Shown here: positions 1,260 through 13,414 of the stretch, piece after piece
How positions within the stretch are numbered: position 1 is the first letter of the stretch
Layout of the letters: each line of letters begins with the position of its first letter
The notes under the pieces: model-generated
Told to the model about the DNA's origin: nothing
The model's database searches: none
The model's input: only the letters and a program-made list of their open reading frames with translations
Translations under genes and position numbers: made by a program
Assembly (NCBI GenBank): GCA_965202915.1
Contig: OZ241847.1
Location: forward strand, 2,194,242 to 2,258,241
Length of the DNA stretch: 64,000 nucleotides
Source of the DNA: Gammaproteobacteria bacterium
GTDB taxonomy: Bacteria; Pseudomonadota; Gammaproteobacteria; Eutrophobiales; Eutrophobiaceae
Direction: 5' to 3'

Positions 1260-3146
1260 GTGAGTAGGCAATCAAATTTCAATGCCAGAAAACGCGGCAA
1301 CAGGAACCGACGCCGGCAAGCCAAATCGCAACCGGTTTCGCCAACAAGCTCAAAGCCATCAGCGACAATATCAGCAAGGGAAAGTATCCATATTACCCCG
1401 GCGCCGCACGGGCCGGAGTCACCCGTCTCCGCCGCGGCACCGGAAGCCGCCATCGCAACCGTATTCGCGCTGCCGGCACTATGCCTGTTAATCACCCTCA
1501 GTTACCTGCCCGCAACCTGGGCGGGGTTGGTGTGGGACGACGTCGTACTGACGATGGCCCAACCGTTGCAACATCTGTCCGGCCTATGGGATATCTGGTT
1601 CGCGCCCCGTTCCCTTTCCCAGTTTGAGGGACACTACTGGCCGCTTCTCTATACGTCTTTCTGGCTGGAGAATCGATTGTGGGGCGTCACCCCGGTCGGC
1701 TATCATATTGTCAACCTTGTACTACATGGCTTGGTCACAGTACTGCTATGGCGCCTGTTACTAAGGCTGGCCGTTCCCGGTGCCTGGTTTGCGGCGGCGG
1801 TGTTCGCGGTACATCCCCTGCACGTGGAGTCCGTGGCATGGATCATCGGACGCAAGGACGTGCTGGCCTCACTGTTTTATCTGGCCTGCGTGCTGAGTTA
1901 CCTGCATTTCATCGAGGCCCGGCGGCGCCGGTTTTATGCCGCGGCACTGGCACTGTTCATGGCGGGTCTGTTGTGCAAATCCATCCTGGTCACGCTGCCC
2001 GTATCGCTACTGATCTGGCACTGGTGGCAACAGGGGCGCGTGACGCCGGCCGACGTGCGCAGAGTGCTGCCGTTCCTGCTGCTGGGGCTGTGCGTCACGA
2101 TCGCCGACGTCTTGTTCTACAAGAGCAGGGATCCCACCGCCTTTGACTATTCAATCGTTGAACGGCTACTGATCGCGGCGCAGGCATTGTGGTTCTACCT
2201 GGGAAAACTGGTCTGGCCGACGCAACTGGCGGTCATTTACCCGCGCTGGGAGGTCGGCGTCGCCAACCCGCTGGCCTGGGGGTGTTTGATGGCCGCCTTC
2301 GCTGCGGTGGCGGCGCTGTGGTTCGGGCGCCACCGCATCGGTCGGGGGCCGCTGGCGGGTGCACTGTTCTTCGTGGTGACGCTGTCGCCGACGCTGGGCT
2401 TCGTGGACTATGGCTACATGCTGTACTCCTTTGTCGCCGACCGCTACCAATACTTGGCCGGGGCCGGTGTGATTGCAACACTGGCCGCAGCCGTAACCCT
2501 GGGCATGGGCAGACTGCCGGGCGCATACCGGCGCGGAGCGCAGGGCATGGCGGTGCTGCCGCTGGCCGCACTGGGCGTCATCACCTGGAACCAGGCGGGA
2601 ATCTACCGGGACAACTACACTTTTTACAGCCACGTCCTCTCTCTCAACCCGCAGGCCCGCTTCGCCCACCACAGTATCGGCCTGGAGTATCAAAAGCAGG
2701 GCCGCCACGAAGAGGCACTTGCCGCTTTTGAAACCGACTATCGTCTTGCCCCGGAGCAGCCGTCCCCACGGGTGCGCATGAGCAAGGCCCAGACCAGCAT
2801 CGGAACGTCGCTTGCGGCACTGGGCCGGATCCAGGAAGCGGAGGAGCACTTCCGGCGCGGGGTTGAGATCGCCCCGGACTTTCCGGGGGCCTACGATCAT
2901 CTGGGCGGGTTCCTGATCACGCACAAGCGTTACCGGGAGGCCCTCGAAGTTTTTCAAGCCGTCATCACCATAACGCCCGGCAATGCAAGGTTTCACGTCG
3001 GCCTGGGGGTCTCGCAGGCGGGCTTGGGACGGCTGGATGAGGCCTTGCAGAGCTACGAGCGGGCGCTGTTGATAGACCCCTTGCAGGAGCAGGCGCTAAG
3101 CAATCGCGCCAGCCTGTTGAAGTTCAGAGAGAGTGGCGGCGGATAG
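1260..3146 (+). CDS. Polytopic GT-C-fold glycosyltransferase-like protein (TMTC/PMT_2-like) with C-terminal TPR repeats; paralogue of 9789-11648
   Basis: 628-aa ORF with a GTG start. It has multiple hydrophobic segments and a first-loop LVWDD acidic motif. GHYWPLLYTSFWLE...GYHIVNLVLHG and AVHPLHVESVAWIIGRKD are also present. The C-terminal ~170 aa shows TPR-like periodicity (EALAAFE, EAEEHFRRGVEIAPDF, EALEVFQAVI, EALQSYERALLIDP). The region is GC-rich with third codon positions mostly G/C. Confidence 0.75.
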   Translation: MSRQSNFNARKRGNRNRRRQAKSQPVSPTSSKPSATISARESIHITPAPHGPESPVSAAAPEAAIATVFALPALCLLITLSYLPATWAGLVWDDVVLTMAQPLQHLSGLWDIWFAPRSLSQFEGHYWPLLYTSFWLENRLWGVTPVGYHIVNLVLHGLVTVLLWRLLLRLAVPGAWFAAAVFAVHPLHVESVAWIIGRKDVLASLFYLACVLSYLHFIEARRRRFYAAALALFMAGLLCKSILVTLPVSLLIWHWWQQGRVTPADVRRVLPFLLLGLCVTIADVLFYKSRDPTAFDYSIVERLLIAAQALWFYLGKLVWPTQLAVIYPRWEVGVANPLAWGCLMAAFAAVAALWFGRHRIGRGPLAGALFFVVTLSPTLGFVDYGYMLYSFVADRYQYLAGAGVIATLAAAVTLGMGRLPGAYRRGAQGMAVLPLAALGVITWNQAGIYRDNYTFYSHVLSLNPQARFAHHSIGLEYQKQGRHEEALAAFETDYRLAPEQPSPRVRMSKAQTSIGTSLAALGRIQEAEEHFRRGVEIAPDFPGAYDHLGGFLITHKRYREALEVFQAVITITPGNARFHVGLGVSQAGLGRLDEALQSYERALLIDPLQEQALSNRASLLKFRESGGG

Positions 3147-3391: not shown

Positions 3392-3841
3392 TCATATTCT
3401 CTTTTGTGGCTTCTCCAGCATTTTTCCAAGCTGATTCAGTTTTCTGTTAAGAAGTTGCCCGTCTTTTAGCTGACATTCCCATATCCGCAATACTTTCCAT
3501 CCGTTGTTTTTAAGCGTCTTGTTTACCAGCCTGTCACGTTTCTTGTTGGCATATATTTTTTTAACCCAAAAATCTCTGTTGTTTTGGGGAACTTGGCCGT
3601 GCTTTGGGCAATCATGCCAGAAACATCCATCCATAAAGATCGCAAGCTTACTGTTTGGAAATACAATGTCTGGCTTGCCGAAAATCGGGTATCTGCGTCG
3701 CCATCCTATCACATGATTTCGCTTCAATATTTTAAGCAGTTTCCCTTCGGTTGATTTGTTTCCAGTAGAACGCACCTTACCCATAATCCATGAACGTTTT
3801 TCTTTTGAATAGACGTCAACCATTTTTCTTGACGTTGTCAA
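3392..3841 (-). CDS. vsr: Very-short-patch repair endonuclease Vsr
   Basis: 149-aa ORF containing GKPDIVFPNSKLAIFMDGCFWHDCPKHG, NRDFWVKKIYANKKRD and GWKVLRIWECQL. Its start overlaps the 3' end of the upstream ORF by 26 nt (3816-3841). Confidence 0.9.
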   Translation of the reverse strand: MTTSRKMVDVYSKEKRSWIMGKVRSTGNKSTEGKLLKILKRNHVIGWRRRYPIFGKPDIVFPNSKLAIFMDGCFWHDCPKHGQVPQNNRDFWVKKIYANKKRDRLVNKTLKNNGWKVLRIWECQLKDGQLLNRKLNQLGKMLEKPQKRI

Positions 3842-5477
3842 GCCTAAACAATAAAAATGAAATTAGACTTAGAATATCAAGGCAACTATTTTCTGGAAAT
3901 AATATATTTGATGTTGTCCTAGGTTCATGGTGCGTTGGATTTCTGAATGCTTGCACCAAACCAACTGAAAGAAATTGTTGACCCCTTTGCATGTTAAGTT
4001 CTGTGTCGTCGGAAAGGTCTGAAATTTGAAGTATTGGAAGCCTGGTTATTGTTGTTCTCCCTCTCTCGTTGTGTGATTCAAAACTAAAAGATTTATGCAT
4101 CAAATCAGTAGATGAATAATTAACACCAGCCTTATCTCTAATTTCCCTTTCATAAATCACCACTCCCTCTTTTGCAGCATCCAGATATCGGGCATTTTTA
4201 TAATCTTCGTACAGTCGATCCCTGATAAGCTGATGCAAATTTCTCCAATGATAATAAGGGTAAGAAGGTATAAGTTTTTTAAACTCGACAAACAGCCGAT
4301 TTGATTCAATAGTTTCTATTTCAGGAAAATCTTCAATCAGTTTTTCAGTAATAACCTCAATACTATTCTGAATTTCCTCCGGCATAGAATTTTTCCAGTC
4401 TTCCAGACCAATATCGCCAAGGCTGTTATCAACCTCGGCTATTTTCTTTTCTTTACGCTTTCTACGCCAATCCAATTGAACGAACTGGACACATTTCTCA
4501 AGATATGTATGAAGTTTGCTAGTTTGTAAATACCCCCAGTTTAGGTTTTGTCTGTTAGTGGAAATTACGTCCTCTGAAAAATCTTCTATAAAATCCACTT
4601 CCAACCATCCCGTCATATAAGAAAAGAAATGACTGGACGTGCTATCAGAAAATTGATAAGGAGATTGCACGAGTTTCCCCCGCGAAAACAAAGAAATACC
4701 CCTTGAATCAAATCTTGGTGCAATGGGCTTTTCAGGCGTAATGATCTTTCCCTGAATCTCAGACCGGTGCTCATAATCTGATTCTATGTTTGAAAAATCC
4801 TCGGGGAAATTCCAAGAAAATTCTTCACCAAATGCGGAGAAGTGCATATCATTGGACAACATTACCGGGTCTTCATCGTTACGCCTTACGGTAACGGAAA
4901 AATCTTCATCGAAAATAAAAAACCTTGCTATGCTGTTGGCAAGAAATTTTTCCGAAAAATCAGATTCTCTATTGATGTTTGTAAGTATTATTTGAGTTCC
5001 GGATTGACCATCTTCAACAATTTTGTCAATTACTTGCGGGATCATTAAATATTTCCCTCTCGTGGAGTTCATTAAATCATCCCAATCCATCGTAAAAATA
5101 TTTCTTTTTCCCTGTTGAACAGTGTTTACGGTAATTGTCCGAACAATCCCAAAGAATGAAAGCTTGCCCAAACCCTTTTTACCGATAACCTTCCTACCTC
5201 TCGGAGTCAACTCTTCTCCATCTTCTCTGCGGTTTCTCCCAATAACAAGAAATTTCTTGTCAATATCATTAAAAGACATTCCTGTTCCATTGTCCGTTAC
5301 AATAATTTCTTTTTCATTAATATCATTCAACTGCACTTCCACTTTTGTGGCATCTGCATCATATGCGTTGGCTAGCAGCTCACTTAAAACCGGAGGAAGA
5401 GTTGAGTACATACGAACTCCAAGGTGCTCTATAACTCTTGGGTCAAACTTCATCGTCAATTGATTAGATTCCAGCAT
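3816..5477 (-). CDS. GHKL (HATPase_c_3/MORC-like) ATPase with a C-terminal TIGR02391 (Hypoth_Ymh)-like domain
   Basis: 553-aa ORF with Bergerat-fold motifs: N-box SELLANAYDA, G1 VTDNGTGM, G2 GKKGLGKLSFFG. The C-terminal ~120 aa (YLDAAKEGVVIYEREIRDKAG...DLMHKSF...QRGQQFLSVGLVQAFRNPTHHEP...LSLISFLLFRLD) matches my recollection of the TIGR02391 pattern. It includes an R-x4-H motif (RNPTHH). Confidence 0.75.
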   Translation of the reverse strand: MLESNQLTMKFDPRVIEHLGVRMYSTLPPVLSELLANAYDADATKVEVQLNDINEKEIIVTDNGTGMSFNDIDKKFLVIGRNRREDGEELTPRGRKVIGKKGLGKLSFFGIVRTITVNTVQQGKRNIFTMDWDDLMNSTRGKYLMIPQVIDKIVEDGQSGTQIILTNINRESDFSEKFLANSIARFFIFDEDFSVTVRRNDEDPVMLSNDMHFSAFGEEFSWNFPEDFSNIESDYEHRSEIQGKIITPEKPIAPRFDSRGISLFSRGKLVQSPYQFSDSTSSHFFSYMTGWLEVDFIEDFSEDVISTNRQNLNWGYLQTSKLHTYLEKCVQFVQLDWRRKRKEKKIAEVDNSLGDIGLEDWKNSMPEEIQNSIEVITEKLIEDFPEIETIESNRLFVEFKKLIPSYPYYHWRNLHQLIRDRLYEDYKNARYLDAAKEGVVIYEREIRDKAGVNYSSTDLMHKSFSFESHNERGRTTITRLPILQISDLSDDTELNMQRGQQFLSVGLVQAFRNPTHHEPRTTSNILFPENSCLDILSLISFLLFRLDNVKKNG

Positions 5478-5489
5478 AATAAAACTATC

Positions 5490-6530
5490 TCAGCCCGAGT
5501 AAAAAGATTTCGCTATTCTGTAAGCAAGTTGCGGTGGCACTGCATTGCCTATTAGCTTGGCTGCGATCATTGAACTTTCACACGCAAAAACATAGTCTTC
5601 GCTGAACGTTTGTAGTGTTGCACCTTCTCTTAGGGACAATCCTCTGTTCTCCTCGGGATGGGCAAATCGACCATTTGAAATCCCGTTAAATCTCGTTGTA
5701 ATTGTTGAAGAGGGTTTATCCCACCTCAATCTCCCATAAACATCCCGAAAAGAATTATCTTTGCCTTTGTAGGTGTTCAATTGAAGCTCGGGGTCGTCTT
5801 TCCATGCGCTCCTTGTCCCGCCGTCTTTGGGTGTTAGCTTGAGCCGTCTCAAATTTTTTTCGGATAACGATGAAACTGTATCCATGAAATTATTTTCATC
5901 CTTATAACCGGATTGCAGAACGGGAAATCCATTATGGGTCCCTATAAATTCCTTCAATACGGATTCTTTCTCCGGTTGGGGAAGATCAATCGATTTTTTT
6001 ACCCTGGAAGCAATCAAGATAAATCTCTTTCTGCTTTGCGGAACTCCATAATACTTGGCATTGATAATATCCTCGACAATCTTATATTCTTTTTCAAGTT
6101 TCCGACAAAATTTGTCAAGCCCACTTTCCGCTTTGTTTCTTTTTATTCCCGGAACATTTTCTATAATTACATAACCCGGTTTGTAGTAACAGACAAAGCG
6201 CCAAAAATGATCAAGCAGTCCTCTGGTGTTCTCCGATGATCTTTTGTTCGTATTCAGGGTGGTCCAGTGCTGGCATGGGCTGCACCCTATAAAGATCAAA
6301 GAGTCGTCATTGCGTTTAATCCCACAATTTTTTTCCAGAAAAGTTCGTGGTGTGTCTTCTATATCTTTTAGAAAAAATTTTGTCCCCGGATGATTTGCCT
6401 CATATGTCTCTTTACAATCCTCATCCACATCTATCCCGGCAACAACCTTTACTCCGGCCATCTTTAACCCTTGGGACATGCCGCCGGCACCGCAAAAAAA
6501 ATCAACCGCTCTTAAGGATTTTTTTCTCAT
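5490..6530 (-). CDS. dcm: DNA (cytosine-5)-methyltransferase
   Basis: 346-aa ORF with the canonical m5C-MTase motifs. These are I DFFCGAGGMSQG, IV GCSPCQHW, VI IIENVPG, VIII QSRKRFILIA and X GNAVPPQLA. Its start overlaps the stop of the upstream ORF (ATGA, 6527-6530). Confidence 0.95.
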   Translation of the reverse strand: MRKKSLRAVDFFCGAGGMSQGLKMAGVKVVAGIDVDEDCKETYEANHPGTKFFLKDIEDTPRTFLEKNCGIKRNDDSLIFIGCSPCQHWTTLNTNKRSSENTRGLLDHFWRFVCYYKPGYVIIENVPGIKRNKAESGLDKFCRKLEKEYKIVEDIINAKYYGVPQSRKRFILIASRVKKSIDLPQPEKESVLKEFIGTHNGFPVLQSGYKDENNFMDTVSSLSEKNLRRLKLTPKDGGTRSAWKDDPELQLNTYKGKDNSFRDVYGRLRWDKPSSTITTRFNGISNGRFAHPEENRGLSLREGATLQTFSEDYVFACESSMIAAKLIGNAVPPQLAYRIAKSFYSG

Positions 6531-8872
6531 TCGCCACCGCCCAAACTGGCTATTAATGTTACTATATGTGCCGCAACCGCGGACGAGGCAGCACGCACGA
6601 CAGAATCTTCGTCATATTCCTCCCGGCCATCGGAATTATCTTCGGAGTCACTGACAAGTCTCTTATACATTGCTAATGTGAGAATGCCCACCCCCACCCT
6701 GAAGCGGTGCCTGATGATCTCTCTCTTACCCTCATCTGATTCTTTGGAAATTAAGTACAAGAGATATTTATTGGCTTTGTTCACATATATGGTTAGCGTT
6801 TCTCCTCTGGACACATGACCGCCCGACTCTTCATTGTAGTTATGTTCATCCCAATATTCTTGCTCCACCCACTCAATATTCGGAAATTCCCGAGCCGGTC
6901 TCTCTTGATTGTTTGTGTCTGTTTCATCCCCGGGCGGGTTTCTTTGAGTTTCTTCCGCACTGGCAATTTTGATCATTACGTCAAAAGTCAGAGGATCTGT
7001 TCTTTCCGGGTTTGAGTCATCAAAGCCAAACTGAACGGCAATTTCATCTCCTACTTTTGCCCCCGCGGGAGTTATGACTTTTATTCGGAATTTTCCATTA
7101 CGCAGAGAACCCGAATGTGGCAATATATCAGGTGATGGGTGAATAAACTCCCCTCGGTTGGCATCTCTTATCAAATAATCATTTTGAGCGTCTGTTCTAC
7201 ATTCAATTCGTCTGTAAGAATTTATGGGAACACTCTTAACATTGCCCTCCTCCAAGTGCGTGGGAGTTAAATATGTGGGGAACAATTTCCCTTCATATTG
7301 ATCCTCACCTCCGGATGTTGCAATCTGACTGTCAACAATACTTCCAACATCAAATAGTTCTTGAAGATCCGGATTATCTTTAACAAGATTGGAAAGAAAT
7401 TCTTTATCGGTCTGCTCTTCTATTTGCTCGCTAATACGACGGTTTTTTATTTCTCTTGCATATTCCCTAAGTTCTCCGCTCCCGGCCAAGGCATCTATAA
7501 TAATTTTCTTTAGTTCTCTCGTGAGCCCTATGTCCGCCATTCTTTCCCTGTCCGATTTAAACACGGCGGCTCGCGCCGTATTATCCATGGCATTACAATC
7601 TATTTGAACAATTAAATGGTTTCTCAAATCATCCAGTCGCGCCTTCCGCAACAGACTGGCTCTGTCCGCAGATTGGGACTGACCGTTGATCGTGTAGAAC
7701 ATTCTGTATGGCTGTTTGCGCAAATAATCCTTCATTTTCTTCAACCCAAAATAAGATATTCGGATAGTCCCCAAATCCGAATTTTCAGAATTTTCAATTA
7801 CGTTTTCCAAGTCAACTTCGCTTTCCTCACTTCTTTCATCATCGGATTTGAGCACTATATTCATACCGGAAAAAGTTCTCGGTGCAATACCCTCCGCTCT
7901 AAGACCGCTCCTTGTGGGTTGAGCATCAAAATCATAAAGACGAACAGGCAAGGCACAATTTATAAGGTTGGTCGTAAGCGCATCATATAGTCCTATATCA
8001 ACCGCACGGGCACGAGGCCCTATATCGTATTCATATAACTTCACAATGCTGCCACCATTGATGACGACACCGATATCCTCTCTGCCAAAAGCCTTGATTT
8101 CATCGGTTTCAAAACAGGCAATTTCTCCGTCGGGACAAAAATACTCAACCACTGGCAAATCCTCTCCTTCTCGAACTCCTCTTACCCTTATCAAAGTCCA
8201 TCCCCATAGACCATCCGAACCGTAAGTGGTTCTTTTGGACAGAATAAACTTATACATCCCCGCCCTGATATCTGCTCGGGTACAAAAAGGTATGGATCCG
8301 GTGCTACCCATATTAAATCGACCTTGGACAAACGGAATGCCTTCCTTATTCTTTTCTCCAAGAGATAAAAAAGTTTTTCCAAAATCTGTATGATTTTGCC
8401 CCTCACCAAAATCAACTATCGTATAGTTTGGACAAATATCATTTCTCCTTCCTGTTCTCTTAATACCAATCAAAACACTTTTTTCAGCCAGATCAGTCCT
8501 TTGATTCGGGCTTAACAAAGCCAACCTGCCTTCTTGAACTTTGGGGAAAAAGTGTTTGACAGCCTCGCTCATATCTTGGGGAGCTGATTCACCATAAAAA
8601 TCTATTTGCTCTTCCTTTGCCCTGCGCATAAGGATTGCGTCAATGGAATTAATGATTAACTCTGCCAACGCACCGACTGGTTGGCTCGTTTGGACGCTCA
8701 CCCTGTCCCAATTTTTATCCGCGCCGCCGTAAGGCTTCCAATTTTCATCAGCGCTAAATTCAGGCTGGCTTTCCATGAACCGATTAACGTCGTCGGCTGA
8801 CAAAGCACCGAGAAACTTATTCGCTATTAACTTTGAAAGTGGGCTGTTGAAAAATTTTCTCGAATCATTCAT
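6527..8872 (-). CDS. Large uncharacterised protein with a divergent N-terminal GHKL/Bergerat ATPase-like region
   Basis: 781-aa ORF and the first gene of the AT-rich operon. Candidate motifs are N-box LAELIINSIDA, G1 IVDFGEGQ and G2 QGRFNMGSTGS (about aa 68-200). I recognise no motifs in the remaining ~550 aa, which end in an acidic tail (SDSEDNSDGREEYDED). Confidence 0.6.
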   Translation of the reverse strand: MNDSRKFFNSPLSKLIANKFLGALSADDVNRFMESQPEFSADENWKPYGGADKNWDRVSVQTSQPVGALAELIINSIDAILMRRAKEEQIDFYGESAPQDMSEAVKHFFPKVQEGRLALLSPNQRTDLAEKSVLIGIKRTGRRNDICPNYTIVDFGEGQNHTDFGKTFLSLGEKNKEGIPFVQGRFNMGSTGSIPFCTRADIRAGMYKFILSKRTTYGSDGLWGWTLIRVRGVREGEDLPVVEYFCPDGEIACFETDEIKAFGREDIGVVINGGSIVKLYEYDIGPRARAVDIGLYDALTTNLINCALPVRLYDFDAQPTRSGLRAEGIAPRTFSGMNIVLKSDDERSEESEVDLENVIENSENSDLGTIRISYFGLKKMKDYLRKQPYRMFYTINGQSQSADRASLLRKARLDDLRNHLIVQIDCNAMDNTARAAVFKSDRERMADIGLTRELKKIIIDALAGSGELREYAREIKNRRISEQIEEQTDKEFLSNLVKDNPDLQELFDVGSIVDSQIATSGGEDQYEGKLFPTYLTPTHLEEGNVKSVPINSYRRIECRTDAQNDYLIRDANRGEFIHPSPDILPHSGSLRNGKFRIKVITPAGAKVGDEIAVQFGFDDSNPERTDPLTFDVMIKIASAEETQRNPPGDETDTNNQERPAREFPNIEWVEQEYWDEHNYNEESGGHVSRGETLTIYVNKANKYLLYLISKESDEGKREIIRHRFRVGVGILTLAMYKRLVSDSEDNSDGREEYDEDSVVRAASSAVAAHIVTLIASLGGGE

Positions 8873-8924
8873 TTATGAAAATTCACCTAGGTTTTGGTAT
8901 TTAATCAGTACATATCCATAACCG

Positions 8925-9300
8925 TTAAAAATCATTCCCGGAACCAAATGGCCACCCACTTGCGGAATAGGCCCGGATGTCATCATCGCCGGCATATTTG
9001 AACCAAAAAACCGCCGCCGGCACAACCGAACATTTGCCAAGCCGGCAGTTTTCCACCACCACCTTGAGCATGGCGTATTCGCCGTTGACTTGGCAGGCGA
9101 AAGCCAGCATATCGAATGCTACTTGATACGCCAAATGATGTCGAGTTTAATATATCCAGTTTGACCATTACGCATGTCGGTGATGTCGAGATCTTCACGC
9201 AGTGCTTTATCGCCATTGGTTAGGACCATTTTGTAACTGTATTTGTCGCCGCCCGCTAGAATCGCCGGACATACGGACTCCCCGAACCAAGAATGATAAC
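8925..9300 (-). pseudogene. hemB: Decayed C-terminal relic of porphobilinogen synthase (hemB-like)
   Basis: Minus-strand fragments lie in different frames, broken by stops. Compared with E. coli HemB from memory: ...ALREDLDIT..DMRNGQTGYIKLDIIWRIK resembles [29 protein letters not shown]. ...LAFACQVNGEYAMLKVVVEN...FWFKYAGDDDIRAYSA resembles [20 protein letters not shown]...GSIKRAGADLIFSYFA. Confidence 0.55.
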
Positions 9301-9788
9301 ATTAGCTCCCTCTACAATCCAGGTATTTCCCAACGCCTGTCCTTCCAGAACACCTATCGACCAAACCATCGGTTACTGACAGAACAACATCTACGGACGT
9401 GGCGACAGCGGTAATTGGGTTATCATGGAATCATCCGATTCACACCATCTCCAGAATATACGGGCGGCAGCATCGGACACTTCCTTGGGTATGTGTGCTA
9501 CCCGCACCTCCAATTAACACGGCCGAGTTGAGAATGTGAACCAAGTATTTCGTTGGTAATTACCCCACATCCTTCGACTTATCAGGTAATGAGACAAGAC
9601 TCGGCAAGGTTACGGGACTTCCCCGGTCACCGTCTGTGCACAATCTTATAATGCTTTTCTGCGAAAATTATGAGGATTGTGTAAAATCCTCTCTTGTATA
9701 GGATTAGGATACCCTCTTGCCACACTTCAGACTGAAATCTGCCTTCTCCTCAAGAAAGGAGTGGCGCAAGGTGAACAGATAATCGGAT

Positions 9789-11648
9789 ATGGCGGCCCGA
9801 AAAAACCGAAACAAGGCCCGGCGCAGGCAAATGAAGCTGCAAACCACCGCCAGGCGCCCCGGCACGGTGCGTAGCCGGACCGGCCCCGTACCCATCAAAT
9901 CGTCGCCGGGCGGGTTGCAATCGCTTTTTTCCGGGCTCAAGCGGAGCGTACTTCACGGGGACCCGATCCCACCCGCACTCGCGGCCACGGCGCTGTGGCT
10001 GCTGATACTCATCAGTTACCTGCCCGCGACCTGGGCCGGTTTCGTGTGGGACGACTTCGCGTTCACGGAGGCCGAACAGGTACTGCGCCCATCCGGTCTT
10101 TGGGATATCTGGTTCAAGCCGCACTCGCTGCAGAATGAAGGCCATTACTGGCCGCTCCTCTATACGACCTTCTGGCTGGAGCACAAGTTGTGGGGGCTGG
10201 ACCCGACCGGTTATCATATCGTCAACCTGCTGCTGCACGGGTTGACCACGCTGTTGTTGTGGCGCCTGCTGCTGCGGCTGGCCGTGCCGGGCGCCTGGTT
10301 CGCGGCGGCGGTGTTCGCCGTGCACCCCCTGCACGTGGAGTCGGTGGCATGGGTTATCGGACGCAAGGACGTGCTGGCGGGGCTGTTCTCCGTGGCCTGC
10401 GTGCTGAGCTATCTGCGTTTCGTGGAAGCTGGTCGCCGCGCACGCTATACGCACTACTTTCGGGCACTGGCGCTGTTCGTGGCGGGACTGTTGAGCAAAT
10501 CCATTGTCGTCACCCTGCCGGTGTCGCTGTTGATCTGGCACTGGTGGAAGCAGGGTCGCGTAGCCGTGACCGACGCACTGAGGACGCTGCCGTTCCTGCT
10601 GCTGGGGCTCGGCATCACGATCATCGACTGGTGGTACTACAAGGACCGGGAAGAGATTGTCCTGGAGGACTACTCGTTGATCGAGCAGACGCTGAACGCG
10701 GCGCACGCGCTGTGGTTCTACGTTGGCAAACTGGTCTGGCCGGCGGAACTGGCAGTCATCTACCCGCGCTGGGAAATCAACGTCAGCGAGCCACTGGCCT
10801 GGGCGTATCTGGTCACCGCCGTCGCGGTGGTGTGGCTGCTGTGGTTCTACCGCGACCGCATTGGCCGGGGGCCGCTGGCGGGGGTGCTGTTCTTCGTGGT
10901 GACGCTATCACCGACCCTGGGGTTCGTCGAGTACGGTTTCATGCAGTTCTCGCTGGTCGCCGACCGCTATCAGTACCTGGCCGGGATCGGAGTGACGGCG
11001 GGCCTCGTGGCCGCCGCGGCCCGCGTTGCAGGCCGGCTGTCGGGTACGCCGGCGAGGGGCGTACAGGCCGCGGCGGTGCTGCTGCTGGTCGTGCTGGGAA
11101 CCATCAGTTGGAACCAGGCGGGCATCTACCGCGACAACTTCACGTTCTACCAGCATATCATCGCTCTCAACCCGCAGGCCAGGAACGCCTGGTACAACCT
11201 TGGCAGAGAGTATTCCATGCAGGGCCGCACGCAGGATGCGCTGGCCGCGTATCTCACCGCCGGCGAGCAGCGCCCCGACCACGTCTGGGCGCATATCGGC
11301 GCCGGGCAGATGGCCGCGGAACTGGGAAGGCTCGCCGAGGCGGAGATGTACCTGCAACGCGCGCTTGCGGTTGACCCGAGTTTCCCGGAAGCCCTCAACA
11401 ATATGGGAGCGCTGCGGCTCAGACAAAAACGCTACAGCGAGGCGCTCGAACTCTTTGAGACCCTGATTGAGATGCAGCCCGAGTACGCCAAGGTTTATTC
11501 TGGCATAGGCGTGGCCCTGGCCGGACTCAGGCGGTTTGAAGAGGCGTTGCGGAGTTTTGACCGCGCGCTTGAACTGGACCCGTCACTGGAAGAGGCGCGG
11601 GTCAACCGCGAGCACGTATTGCGGAACTCCAAAAGCGAGAGCAGGTAA
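9789..11648 (+). CDS. Polytopic GT-C-fold glycosyltransferase-like protein (TMTC/PMT_2-like) with C-terminal TPR repeats; paralogue of 1260-3146
   Basis: 619-aa ORF that is colinear with the 628-aa protein. Shared blocks include ISYLPATWAGFVWDD, GHYWPLLYTTFWLE, LLWRLLLRLAVPGAWFAAAVFAVHPLHVESVAW, RIGRGPLAG.LFFVVTLSPTLGFV and WNQAGIYRDN. The TPR tail is more divergent. Its stop overlaps the next start (TAATG at 11646-11650). Confidence 0.8.
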   Translation: MAARKNRNKARRRQMKLQTTARRPGTVRSRTGPVPIKSSPGGLQSLFSGLKRSVLHGDPIPPALAATALWLLILISYLPATWAGFVWDDFAFTEAEQVLRPSGLWDIWFKPHSLQNEGHYWPLLYTTFWLEHKLWGLDPTGYHIVNLLLHGLTTLLLWRLLLRLAVPGAWFAAAVFAVHPLHVESVAWVIGRKDVLAGLFSVACVLSYLRFVEAGRRARYTHYFRALALFVAGLLSKSIVVTLPVSLLIWHWWKQGRVAVTDALRTLPFLLLGLGITIIDWWYYKDREEIVLEDYSLIEQTLNAAHALWFYVGKLVWPAELAVIYPRWEINVSEPLAWAYLVTAVAVVWLLWFYRDRIGRGPLAGVLFFVVTLSPTLGFVEYGFMQFSLVADRYQYLAGIGVTAGLVAAAARVAGRLSGTPARGVQAAAVLLLVVLGTISWNQAGIYRDNFTFYQHIIALNPQARNAWYNLGREYSMQGRTQDALAAYLTAGEQRPDHVWAHIGAGQMAAELGRLAEAEMYLQRALAVDPSFPEALNNMGALRLRQKRYSEALELFETLIEMQPEYAKVYSGIGVALAGLRRFEEALRSFDRALELDPSLEEARVNREHVLRNSKSESR

Positions 11649-13414
11649 TGGCGAAACGGAAAAACCCCCGCCCCGCCACTCGCCGGCGCCGACAACCTGG
11701 GGCAGCGGCGCCGACAACGGCAACGATGCCCTGGCGGTGGCGCGCGGGCGACGCCTTATTTGCCGCCGACCGCCCGCGGCTCGCCGGCGACGGCGAACAC
11801 TGGACGTATTTCTGGCCGCTGCTGGGCGCGGCCCTGCTGCTGCGCGCTGCCATCGCCCTGTGGGGTGACTTTGTGCTGCATCCGGACGAGATCATGCAAT
11901 ACCTGGAGCCGGCCCACTATGTGGCCTTCGGCAATGGCGTCCTCTACTGGGAATATCTCCACGGCGCACGCAGCTGGCTGATCCCGGGCGCGATCGCCGG
12001 CGTGCTGAAGGCGCTGGATGGCTTGGGGCTGGCGCAGCCGGCCATCTATATCGCCGTGGTGAAACTGTTGTTCTGCCTGCTGTCGCTGTCGGTGCCGTGG
12101 GCCATGTACCGCTTCACGCAAATCACGGTCAACGAGCGATCTGCTCGGCTGGCGCTGATCTTCGGCTGCTTCTGGTACGAACTGGCGGCGCTGGCGCACA
12201 AACCCTTCACCGAATTGTTCAGCACTTCCATTTTCATGGTCGTGCTCGCTCTGTCCGTGGGCAGGGAAGCGGAAAGACCCGCCAGGCTGTTTGCCATCGG
12301 CCTGCTGGCGGCACTCAGCGGTGCGGTGCGCCTGCAGTACGCACCCGTGGCGTTGCTGCTGTTGTTGCTGCGCTCGGTATCCCTGCGCAACGGCGTTGCC
12401 GGGCTGGTGTCGTTATGGGCGGGCGCCGGGCTGCTGACGCTGCTAGTGGGTATCTTCGAATGGCAGACCTGGGGGGCGCCGTTTCATTCCTACCTGAGCA
12501 ACTTCTTTATCAATCTCGCCATTGACCCCGCACGCGCCGGTGAATCAAGCCGATGGCTTCTGTTGGGGCAGTTGGCCGCGGCCAGCGGCGGCATGGCACT
12601 GATCGCCTTTGCCGCTGCGCTGCCCAGGGGGCGGCGGCATCTGCTCATCCTGGTGACGAGCGCGGTGATACTCGTCCTGCACCTGCTCCCGGAGCATCGC
12701 GAATACCGCTTCATCCACGTCCTGATCCCGTGCTGGTTGATGCTGCTGGCGGCCTGGATCGCGCGCTGGGGCGACGGATTGTCCGGCGAACGAGGCCGGA
12801 TATCCGCACTGGCGCGGCGCTGGGGCGCGGCGGCGGTGCTGGCCTTCGGCATCCCAGCCCTACTCAATGCGTTTCCCTGGCAGAGCCGGGTGTACCAGAG
12901 TTTCTCCGTGGAAAAACCGGTGTACTACTTGCGCAATCAGGACCCGATATTTGAGATCATGTCTTTCCTGGCCGCCCAGGACGACGTGCACGGAGCTCTC
13001 TACCATACCCGGGAATACAACGCATACTTCAGCACTGGCGGCTATTACTACCTGCACCACGACGTCCCTTTCTATACCGCGCAAGACACCTGGCAAACCA
13101 TCAGGGAACGGCACCCGGCGGTGCCTCAGGAATCGTTGGTTTCCCATATCGTGACCGAGGCCGACGGCCCCGCCATCCAGGGGTTCGAACGACTGCTCCG
13201 GCGTGGAAACCTGGCGCTGTGGCGGCGCCGGGACAACGACAGTGCAGTCCCCCGCTGGCGCGAGCACGTGATCAAGGTAAGCCATGCGGACCTAAACGAC
13301 CTGGTGAGCAGAACCATGCGGCGCCTGAACGCCTCTTCCATGCTCGACCTTTTCGTAGCCGATGACTTGTACTGGGTGGAGGCGCCACCGTTGTTTGAGT
13401 CGGCGGATGAATAA
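11648..13414 (+). CDS. GT-C mannosyltransferase-like membrane protein (GT22 / PIG-B-ALG9-like)
   Basis: 588-aa polytopic ORF. Its first-loop motif LHPDEIMQYLEPAHYVAFGNGVLYWEYLHGARSWLIPG matches the PDE..Q.LE.AH...FG.G.LTWE...G.RS pattern of Dol-P-Man-dependent GT22 enzymes. It is translationally coupled to the upstream gene. Confidence 0.65.
   Translation: MAKRKNPRPATRRRRQPGAAAPTTATMPWRWRAGDALFAADRPRLAGDGEHWTYFWPLLGAALLLRAAIALWGDFVLHPDEIMQYLEPAHYVAFGNGVLYWEYLHGARSWLIPGAIAGVLKALDGLGLAQPAIYIAVVKLLFCLLSLSVPWAMYRFTQITVNERSARLALIFGCFWYELAALAHKPFTELFSTSIFMVVLALSVGREAERPARLFAIGLLAALSGAVRLQYAPVALLLLLLRSVSLRNGVAGLVSLWAGAGLLTLLVGIFEWQTWGAPFHSYLSNFFINLAIDPARAGESSRWLLLGQLAAASGGMALIAFAAALPRGRRHLLILVTSAVILVLHLLPEHREYRFIHVLIPCWLMLLAAWIARWGDGLSGERGRISALARRWGAAAVLAFGIPALLNAFPWQSRVYQSFSVEKPVYYLRNQDPIFEIMSFLAAQDDVHGALYHTREYNAYFSTGGYYYLHHDVPFYTAQDTWQTIRERHPAVPQESLVSHIVTEADGPAIQGFERLLRRGNLALWRRRDNDSAVPRWREHVIKVSHADLNDLVSRTMRRLNASSMLDLFVADDLYWVEAPPLFESADE

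Follow-up and report, generated by a model that had tools for sequence, protein, structure and literature searches.

GHKL-type (MORC-like) components of restriction-modification (R-M) systems were predicted in 2008, when Iyer, Abhiman and Aravind (PMC2292703) reported MORCs in prokaryotes together with five paraMORC families, which combine a GHKL and an S5 domain and are encoded beside cytosine methylases and Vsr in R-M operons. In the same year Orlowski and Bujnicki (PMC2441816) described five GHKL-bearing subfamilies in REBASE, including R.NmeAIP, a fusion of GHKL with Hypoth_Ymh. The NmeAI system has three genes, M, R and Vsr (PMC3787668); Anantharaman et al. (PMC3710099) also considered the fusion of paraMORC with Ymh. 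In VcSduA, a Shedu protein of the paraMORC3 type, GHKL is followed by a DUF4263 PD-(D/E)xK nuclease, and both ATPase and nuclease residues are experimentally required (PMC12137116). Even the REBASE GHKL enzymes have unassigned catalytic domains, and a literature search found no mechanistic study of a Dcm-linked member, no characterised GHKL+Dcm defence pair and no bacterial MORC defence system. The gene described here (the target) opens a four-gene operon (target, dcm, a gene for a 553-aa GHKL-HEPN protein, vsr) in a stretch of 64,000 nt (the window) from a Gammaproteobacteria bacterium (Eutrophobiaceae; GCA_965202915.1, OZ241847.1 positions 2,194,242 to 2,258,241). Its product is proposed, with a probability of roughly 55%, to be the restriction-side, ATP-driven partner of Dcm in an R-M-like defence module, acting as a dimerising GHKL+S5 "clamp".

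Judged by its motifs and its predicted structure, the target is a genuine, though strongly diverged, member of the MORC/MutL/topoisomerase type of GHKL ATPases, with intact ATP-binding motifs including the putative catalytic-base Glu. An earlier note, made from the letters of this DNA alone, had picked out ELIINSIDA, IVDFGEGQ and GRFNMGSTGS and proposed a Bergerat fold far in sequence from the MutL, Hsp90 and histidine-kinase consensus. All three motifs were found (Table 1), and the fold was borne out by their conservation, by an AlphaFold2 model searched with Foldseek and by profile-profile alignment. Among 56 representatives that are 24-57% identical to the window protein, residues N75, D78, D154, G156, G158, G184 and G189 are invariant, and E71, N187, G192 and T226 are conserved in at least 90%. 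T226 lies on model strand 223-231 and is a candidate motif IV Thr by strand position, pocket geometry aside. Residues 61-345 hold 45 of the 70 most conserved positions, and conservation peaks in the lid region (0.72-0.82 identity between clades).

The distance from known families is considerable, as had been claimed. Pfam, NCBIfam and PADLOC scans (E <= 0.1) gave no match for the target; its sole Pfam match at E <= 10 is HATPase_c_3, below threshold at E=0.11 (12.9 bits vs a cutoff of 25). Sequence and profile searches of the PDB, run with the single target protein and with alignments A1 and A3, returned noise only (eRF1, designed myoglobin, harmonin). By hhalign the target reached only E=0.082 against the single 553-aa sequence, and E=1.5e-4 against a 13-sequence profile of bona fide HATPase_c_3 partner proteins, with G1 (DNGxGM), G2 and the next strand all in register. 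In the AlphaFold2 model, based on 44 homologues (mean predicted local distance difference test score (pLDDT) 79.5; predicted TM-score 0.64), the Bergerat fold is confirmed and an S5-fold domain directly follows it. Foldseek placed TopoVI-B first (E 4.5e-11) and also returned the GyrB 43K fragment and Hsp90, each with a probability of 1.00; by their aligned lengths the matches cover the GHKL domain together with the S5/transducer domain that comes after it. The lid is predicted to be flexible (pLDDT <50 at aa 186-195), and the helical "strap" at the N-terminus may take part in dimerisation.

The nearest GHKL subfamily is ambiguous in the structural model, since Foldseek puts TopoVI-B and GyrB ahead of MORC/MutL. 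The top match, Methanosarcina mazei TopoVI-B (728 alignment columns), likewise has GHKL and transducer domains with long helices, but the TM-scores are low (0.28/0.34) and the target operon contains neither a TopoVI-A/Spo11-like partner nor a Toprim domain. M. mazei TopoVI-B ends in an Ig-like domain. Eukaryotic MORC2/3, SMCHD1 and the N-terminal module of bacterial MutL are only 11-13% identical to the target, which lacks their CW, coiled-coil and hinge domains and the C-terminal endonuclease domain of MutL. The MORC-specific S5 motif GhXhhpXXRhl (PMC2292703) is missing in the target. The stretch at its position reads R390-M-F-Y-T-I-N-G-Q398-S-Q (family consensus GxxxTVNGQTHG), and Q398 is invariant at the place where the MORC motif has Arg. 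R442, within FKSDRER of the S5 domain, is also invariant and is a candidate basic "finger" by sequence position.

The second line of evidence is genomic. The dcm product is a complete C5 cytosine methyltransferase with FCGAGG, SPCQ, ENV, QSRKR and GNAVPP motifs, and the stop codon of the target overlaps the dcm start as ATGA, an overlap that the earlier note had already described. Neighbourhoods were surveyed at 82 non-redundant loci (numbered with the prefix L), and modification genes were recurrent among the neighbours. In relatives with at least 40% identity, Dcm adjoins the homologue in 28 of the 33 informative loci, mostly immediately downstream, and the junction is often a 4-nt overlap or is occupied by Vsr. 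The coupling to Dcm is both operonic and translational, and it is tight. Overall, Dcm lies within two genes in 36/82 loci. Vsr is present in 28/82, and 28 of the 36 Dcm-linked loci carry it; the GHKL-HEPN gene is found in only 12/82. Several loci have the homologue and Dcm alone (L002, L015, L016, L022, L028). In an alphaproteobacterial clade (28-30% identity) Vsr-Dcm is divergent and upstream.

Neither Dcm nor Vsr is found in 46/82 loci. Seven loci of distant members contain N6/N4 methyltransferases, L037 has GmrSD with an Hhe-like helicase-nuclease, and L041 has a DpdB/DndB-like protein. Among plasmid copies, that of Hymenobacter adjoins an Ssp-type phosphorothioation cluster with SIR2 and DUF262, that of Ensifer a PAPS-reductase/ATPase pair, and that of Halogeometricum is divergent from a DNA methyltransferase. 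The family is repeatedly associated with modification modules of different chemistry and with defence islands.

Among the described systems, the window operon is most like that of paraMORC1: a cytosine methylase and Vsr accompany the target, a second, MORC-like HATPase_c_3 gene is present, and the distribution is patchy and mobile. The target family differs from the paraMORCs in lacking the MORC S5 motif and any Pfam, NCBIfam or PADLOC model, and in occurring also with N6/N4 methyltransferases and phosphorothioation clusters. The descriptions of paraMORC3 (RE-fold C-terminus), paraMORC4 (TIR) and paraMORC5 (HxH) do not fit the target C-terminus, while that of paraMORC1 does, by description only. 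The target is an unmodelled paraMORC-type GHKL ATPase of R-M-like systems and, compared by description, quite possibly paraMORC1 itself. Like R.HgiDII/BbrUII and R.NmeAIP, it is a large protein that begins with a GHKL module and whose gene adjoins that of a C5 methyltransferase, with or without Vsr; like R.HgiDII it also has a C-terminal part that cannot be assigned to a known nuclease fold. Unlike these REBASE enzymes it matches neither NF050001 nor PADLOC REase_II, both of which are matched by its 553-aa neighbour, and its C-terminus is an Ig-like sandwich with a helical hairpin, not Ymh/HEPN. In VcSduA, as proposed for the target, one polypeptide carries a GHKL ATPase that would gate a C-terminal effector; VcSduA, however, has a recognisable nuclease and acts alone, whereas the target has none and is coupled to a methyltransferase.

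In the proposed module, methylation by Dcm would mark self DNA. ATP binding would dimerise the target and close the clamp around or along unmodified incoming DNA, as in MORC, MutL and type II topoisomerase modules. Cleavage could then proceed through an as yet unrecognised active site within the sandwich and alpha/beta module of the C-terminus (candidate residues D561, D619, Y566, R569, N698, N701), or a partner could be recruited or activated. In the window the module is joined by the NmeAI-type GHKL-HEPN protein and Vsr. Sequence specificity would come from the methyltransferase or the modification state, as from Mod in Type III systems, not from the target. When clades paired with different Dcm types were compared, no hypervariable segment resembling a target recognition domain was seen; the divergence is smooth and dips only in disordered loops. 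Because the architecture stays constant while the modification partner changes and no variable recognition segment is present, specificity is probably supplied by the methyltransferase. A more speculative and rather doubtful version would make the target and Dcm together a counterpart of a Type III restriction enzyme, built from two genes and with GHKL as its motor: site recognition would fall to the methyltransferase, and the ATP-gated MORC-like clamp would either cut by an unseen active site in the Ig-like/alpha-beta module or, without cutting, topologically trap or compact unmethylated DNA. In the version without cutting, it would be the bacterial equivalent of the methylation-linked silencing by MORC proteins in eukaryotes.

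Several observations weigh against a restriction-side role. No nuclease fold or motif (PD-(D/E)xK, HNH, GIY-YIG, PLD, half-pipe) was detected in any part of the protein, the MutL-type DQHA motif is missing, and no PADLOC or REBASE-derived restriction endonuclease model matches the target. The earlier note had recognised no motif beyond the ATPase domain, and in the C-terminal half no nuclease fold was detected and no curated model matched. This half contains few conserved polar residues (T560, D561, Y566, R569, D619, N698, N701) and, by charge count, no basic surface. The net charge of the window protein is -29 and no domain is net positive. About half of the distant loci have no modification gene within 3 genes, and intact homologues occur without a nearby methyltransferase (L014, and L031 and L032 between spoT and recG), a pattern hard to reconcile with classical restriction unless the methyltransferase is unlinked. 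No experiment on any family member was found in the literature.

The same orphan copies would suit an autonomous ATPase of defence islands, either an abortive-infection or sensor protein or a modification-dependent, Type IV-like factor, whose adjacency to Dcm would come from the clustering of defence genes or from use of the methyltransferase as an addiction/immunity partner, with no common enzymatic mechanism. The partners of distant clades are indeed heterogeneous (a 337-412 aa protein at 7 loci, a ~75-80 aa protein at 20, PIN/VapC-like proteins, a second GHKL protein), and the HEPN domain of the GHKL-HEPN neighbour in the window is a predicted RNase typical of abortive-infection systems (PMC3710099). 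This explanation appears unlikely: the ATGA coupling and the 28/33 adjacency in the near clade are tighter than co-localisation in islands predicts, and Dcm is the sole conserved partner at the two-gene loci.

An accessory role in very-short-patch repair is improbable. Here the target would be a MutL-like, ATP-dependent clamp that stimulates Vsr at T:G mismatches arising from deamination of Dcm-made 5-methylcytosine, a role in keeping with its similarity to MutL and with the presence of Vsr at 28 of the 36 Dcm-linked loci. The other eight Dcm-linked loci (L002, L010, L015, L016, L017, L022, L028, L036) lack Vsr, and the 46 loci devoid of both genes have N6/N4 methyltransferases, phosphorothioation, Type I R-M, GmrSD and similar systems instead. 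The dimerisation/endonuclease domain that forms the MutL C-terminus is missing; the target gave no structural match to it and no match to the NCBIfam mutL model (TIGR00585). Most bacterial Dcm-Vsr pairs, moreover, function without a target-like gene.

Very improbable, too, is a classical sequence-specific Type II enzyme in which the C-terminal ~315 aa would be a new nuclease and recognition fold and the GHKL module only regulatory, in parallel to R.HgiDII. The gene does precede and overlap that of its methyltransferase, the typical position of an R gene, GHKL-bearing restriction endonucleases with unassigned C-termini are already in REBASE (PMC2441816), and the conserved D561, D619, Y566 and R569 could form an active site. 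Against it, one architecture is kept at 24-30% identity across C5, N6/N4 and phosphorothioate partners, whereas Type II enzymes of differing specificity are normally unrelated; a variable recognition segment and a detectable nuclease fold are both lacking. A histidine kinase or Hsp90-type chaperone was rejected, as the S5 transducer is present, MORC/MutL/topoisomerase proteins match best and the genomic context does not fit.

The proposed partner of Dcm belongs to a large family. A word-indexed search found at least 351 homologues, mostly full-length among the 120 listed, and an exhaustive profile search found 2,370 clusters (50% identity) at E <= 1e-3 and 788 at E <= 1e-30, most of them 750-850 aa long. 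Relatives occur in 472 of ~186,000 species genomes, in many bacterial phyla and some methanogens and haloarchaea, and all homologues are publicly named "hypothetical protein". The family is horizontally mobile, with a patchy distribution. Phage genomes gave no match and IMG/VR only 8 weak loci, and a phage origin was rejected on these grounds. As Pfam, NCBIfam and PADLOC all miss the family, present defence-system annotation overlooks it; a profile hidden Markov model from the present alignments would make it annotatable. In the simplest case the family member and Dcm make up a cassette of just two genes, an easy starting point for experiments. The value of the finding lies in the family's size, absent annotation, simple two-gene form and effector chemistry, and it makes two questions approachable: how a GHKL clamp could read the modification state of DNA, and which function was ancestral to the MORC ATPases of eukaryotes.

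Table 1. Features of the target, its operon and its surroundings, with the partner genes of distant homologues (window positions unless a locus is named)
Feature	Position	Strand	Details
Target gene	6527..8872	(-)	781 aa, ATG start; divergent GHKL+S5 (paraMORC-like) ATPase, uncharacterised C-terminal half
aa 1-60, helical N-terminal "strap"	8693..8872	(-)	model secondary structure; W45 invariant, N54 >=90% conserved
aa 61-345, Bergerat-fold GHKL ATP-binding domain	7838..8692	(-)	
N-box ELIINSIDA, aa 71-79	8636-8662		E71/N75/D78
G1 box IVDFGEGQ, aa 152-159	8396-8419		D154xG156xG158
G2/lid GRFNMGSTGS, aa 184-193	8294-8323		G184..G189..G192
aa 346-465, S5-fold transducer domain	7478..7837	(-)	TINGQ aa 394-398
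aa 466-530, helical linker then low-confidence loop	7283..7477	(-)	model secondary structure, pLDDT
aa 531-640, Ig-like beta-sandwich	6953..7282	(-)	family motif (E)TDAxNDYxxR aa 557-569; D619
aa 641-781, C-terminal part + stop codon	6527..6952	(-)	models, motif positions
dcm, C5 cytosine DNA methyltransferase, 346 aa	5490..6530	(-)	PF00145 E=5.9e-52, TIGR00675
Second GHKL gene, 553 aa, HATPase_c_3 + S5 + Hypoth_Ymh (HEPN)	3816..5477	(-)	Pfam HATPase_c_3 1.8e-22, Hypoth_Ymh 5.4e-19
vsr, very-short-patch repair endonuclease, 149 aa	3392..3841	(-)	TIGR00632 1.6e-33, Pfam Vsr 3.3e-16
Low-GC island	~3392-9750		GC 0.39-0.43
Spacer, ~900 bp	8873-9788		
hemB 3'-end remnant	8952-9301	(-)	frameshifted
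Flanking TPR/glycosyltransferase genes	1260-3146, 9789-11648, 11648-13414		GC 0.55-0.65
337-412 aa partner of distant homologues	L043:6896-7948, L045:1183-2196, L048:6958-7974, L050:6985-8001		
337-412 aa partner of distant homologues	L055:2071-3159, L072:6825-7952, L080:661-1899		

The C-terminal part of the target consists, in order, of a disordered loop (641-663), a small alpha/beta unit with VNxxNxYL (697-704) and a long helical hairpin. The arms of the hairpin are joined by a loop that contains the acidic stretch that the earlier note had mentioned (aa 741-756). For aa 641-781, the structure search gave no match above generic level.

By its domain composition, the 553-aa product of the second GHKL gene has the R.NmeAIP / paraMORC-Ymh architecture (PMC2441816, PMC3710099). 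At aa 260 it has the MORC-like S5 sequence GISLFSRGKLV, and its C-terminus is a Ymh/HEPN domain, a predicted RNase. It matches PADLOC REase_II, and its match to the NCBIfam BbrUII/HgiDII restriction model (NF050001; 3.6e-66) covers only aa 8-379 and falls below the cutoff (score 224, cutoff 550).

The operon lies in a low-GC island flanked by paralogous TPR/glycosyltransferase genes of higher GC content. No integrase or tRNA was found along the island stretch, and scans of its surroundings for flanking direct or inverted repeats and for terminators and promoters gave nothing above chance. The spacer upstream of the target holds what is left of the 3' end of a hemB gene (porphobilinogen synthase); this remnant is frameshifted and shares 43-44% identity with residues 209-333 of the intact HemB. 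L005 and L012 have an intact hemB immediately upstream of their homologous operons, and L011 too retains a hemB fragment. Given this remnant and the hemB genes beside homologous operons, the island was apparently transferred along with part of the donor flank.

Two further partners were noted in the survey. A conserved stretch of ~75-80 aa (open reading frames of 81-127 aa) lies directly upstream on the same strand in 20/82 loci of several clades (L016, L020-L026, L034, L042, L044, L047, L049, L051, L054; further L058, L059, L075, L076, L082, L084). Its core reads RVNxAIKxIxLIGNLSNRSNYxY and its position recalls the controller proteins of R-M systems; Pfam gave no significant match for it, and it is missing in the window and the closest relatives. 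The 337-412 aa protein is encoded just upstream of distant homologues, on the same strand; it has no Pfam or PADLOC match, and its N-terminus is ribbon-helix-helix-like by eye. PIN/VapC-like genes are also among the distant-clade partners, and a second HATPase_c_3 protein is present at L038 and L067. In Virgibacillus xinjiangensis (L070:5962-12753) a distant homologue sits between an hsdM-S fusion and hsdR of a Type I R-M system. This position inside Type I operons is also used by accessory defence genes such as PrrC/RloC.

Whole-operon copies with 68-74% identity were found at L005-L013, in metagenome-assembled genomes of different phyla, many titled sponge symbionts (Arenicellales, Nitrospirales, Thermodesulfobacteriota, Ca. 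Spongiihabitans, Poriferihabitaceae). Such similarity across phyla suggests recent exchange within one habitat, and the window too probably stems from a genome of this kind. Decay is also visible: truncated homologues occur at L013 (~598 aa, with a Dcm fragment of only 82 aa), L035 (441 aa) and L036 (405 aa), and L011 has a split vsr. Turnover by gene decay is typical of R-M and defence genes.

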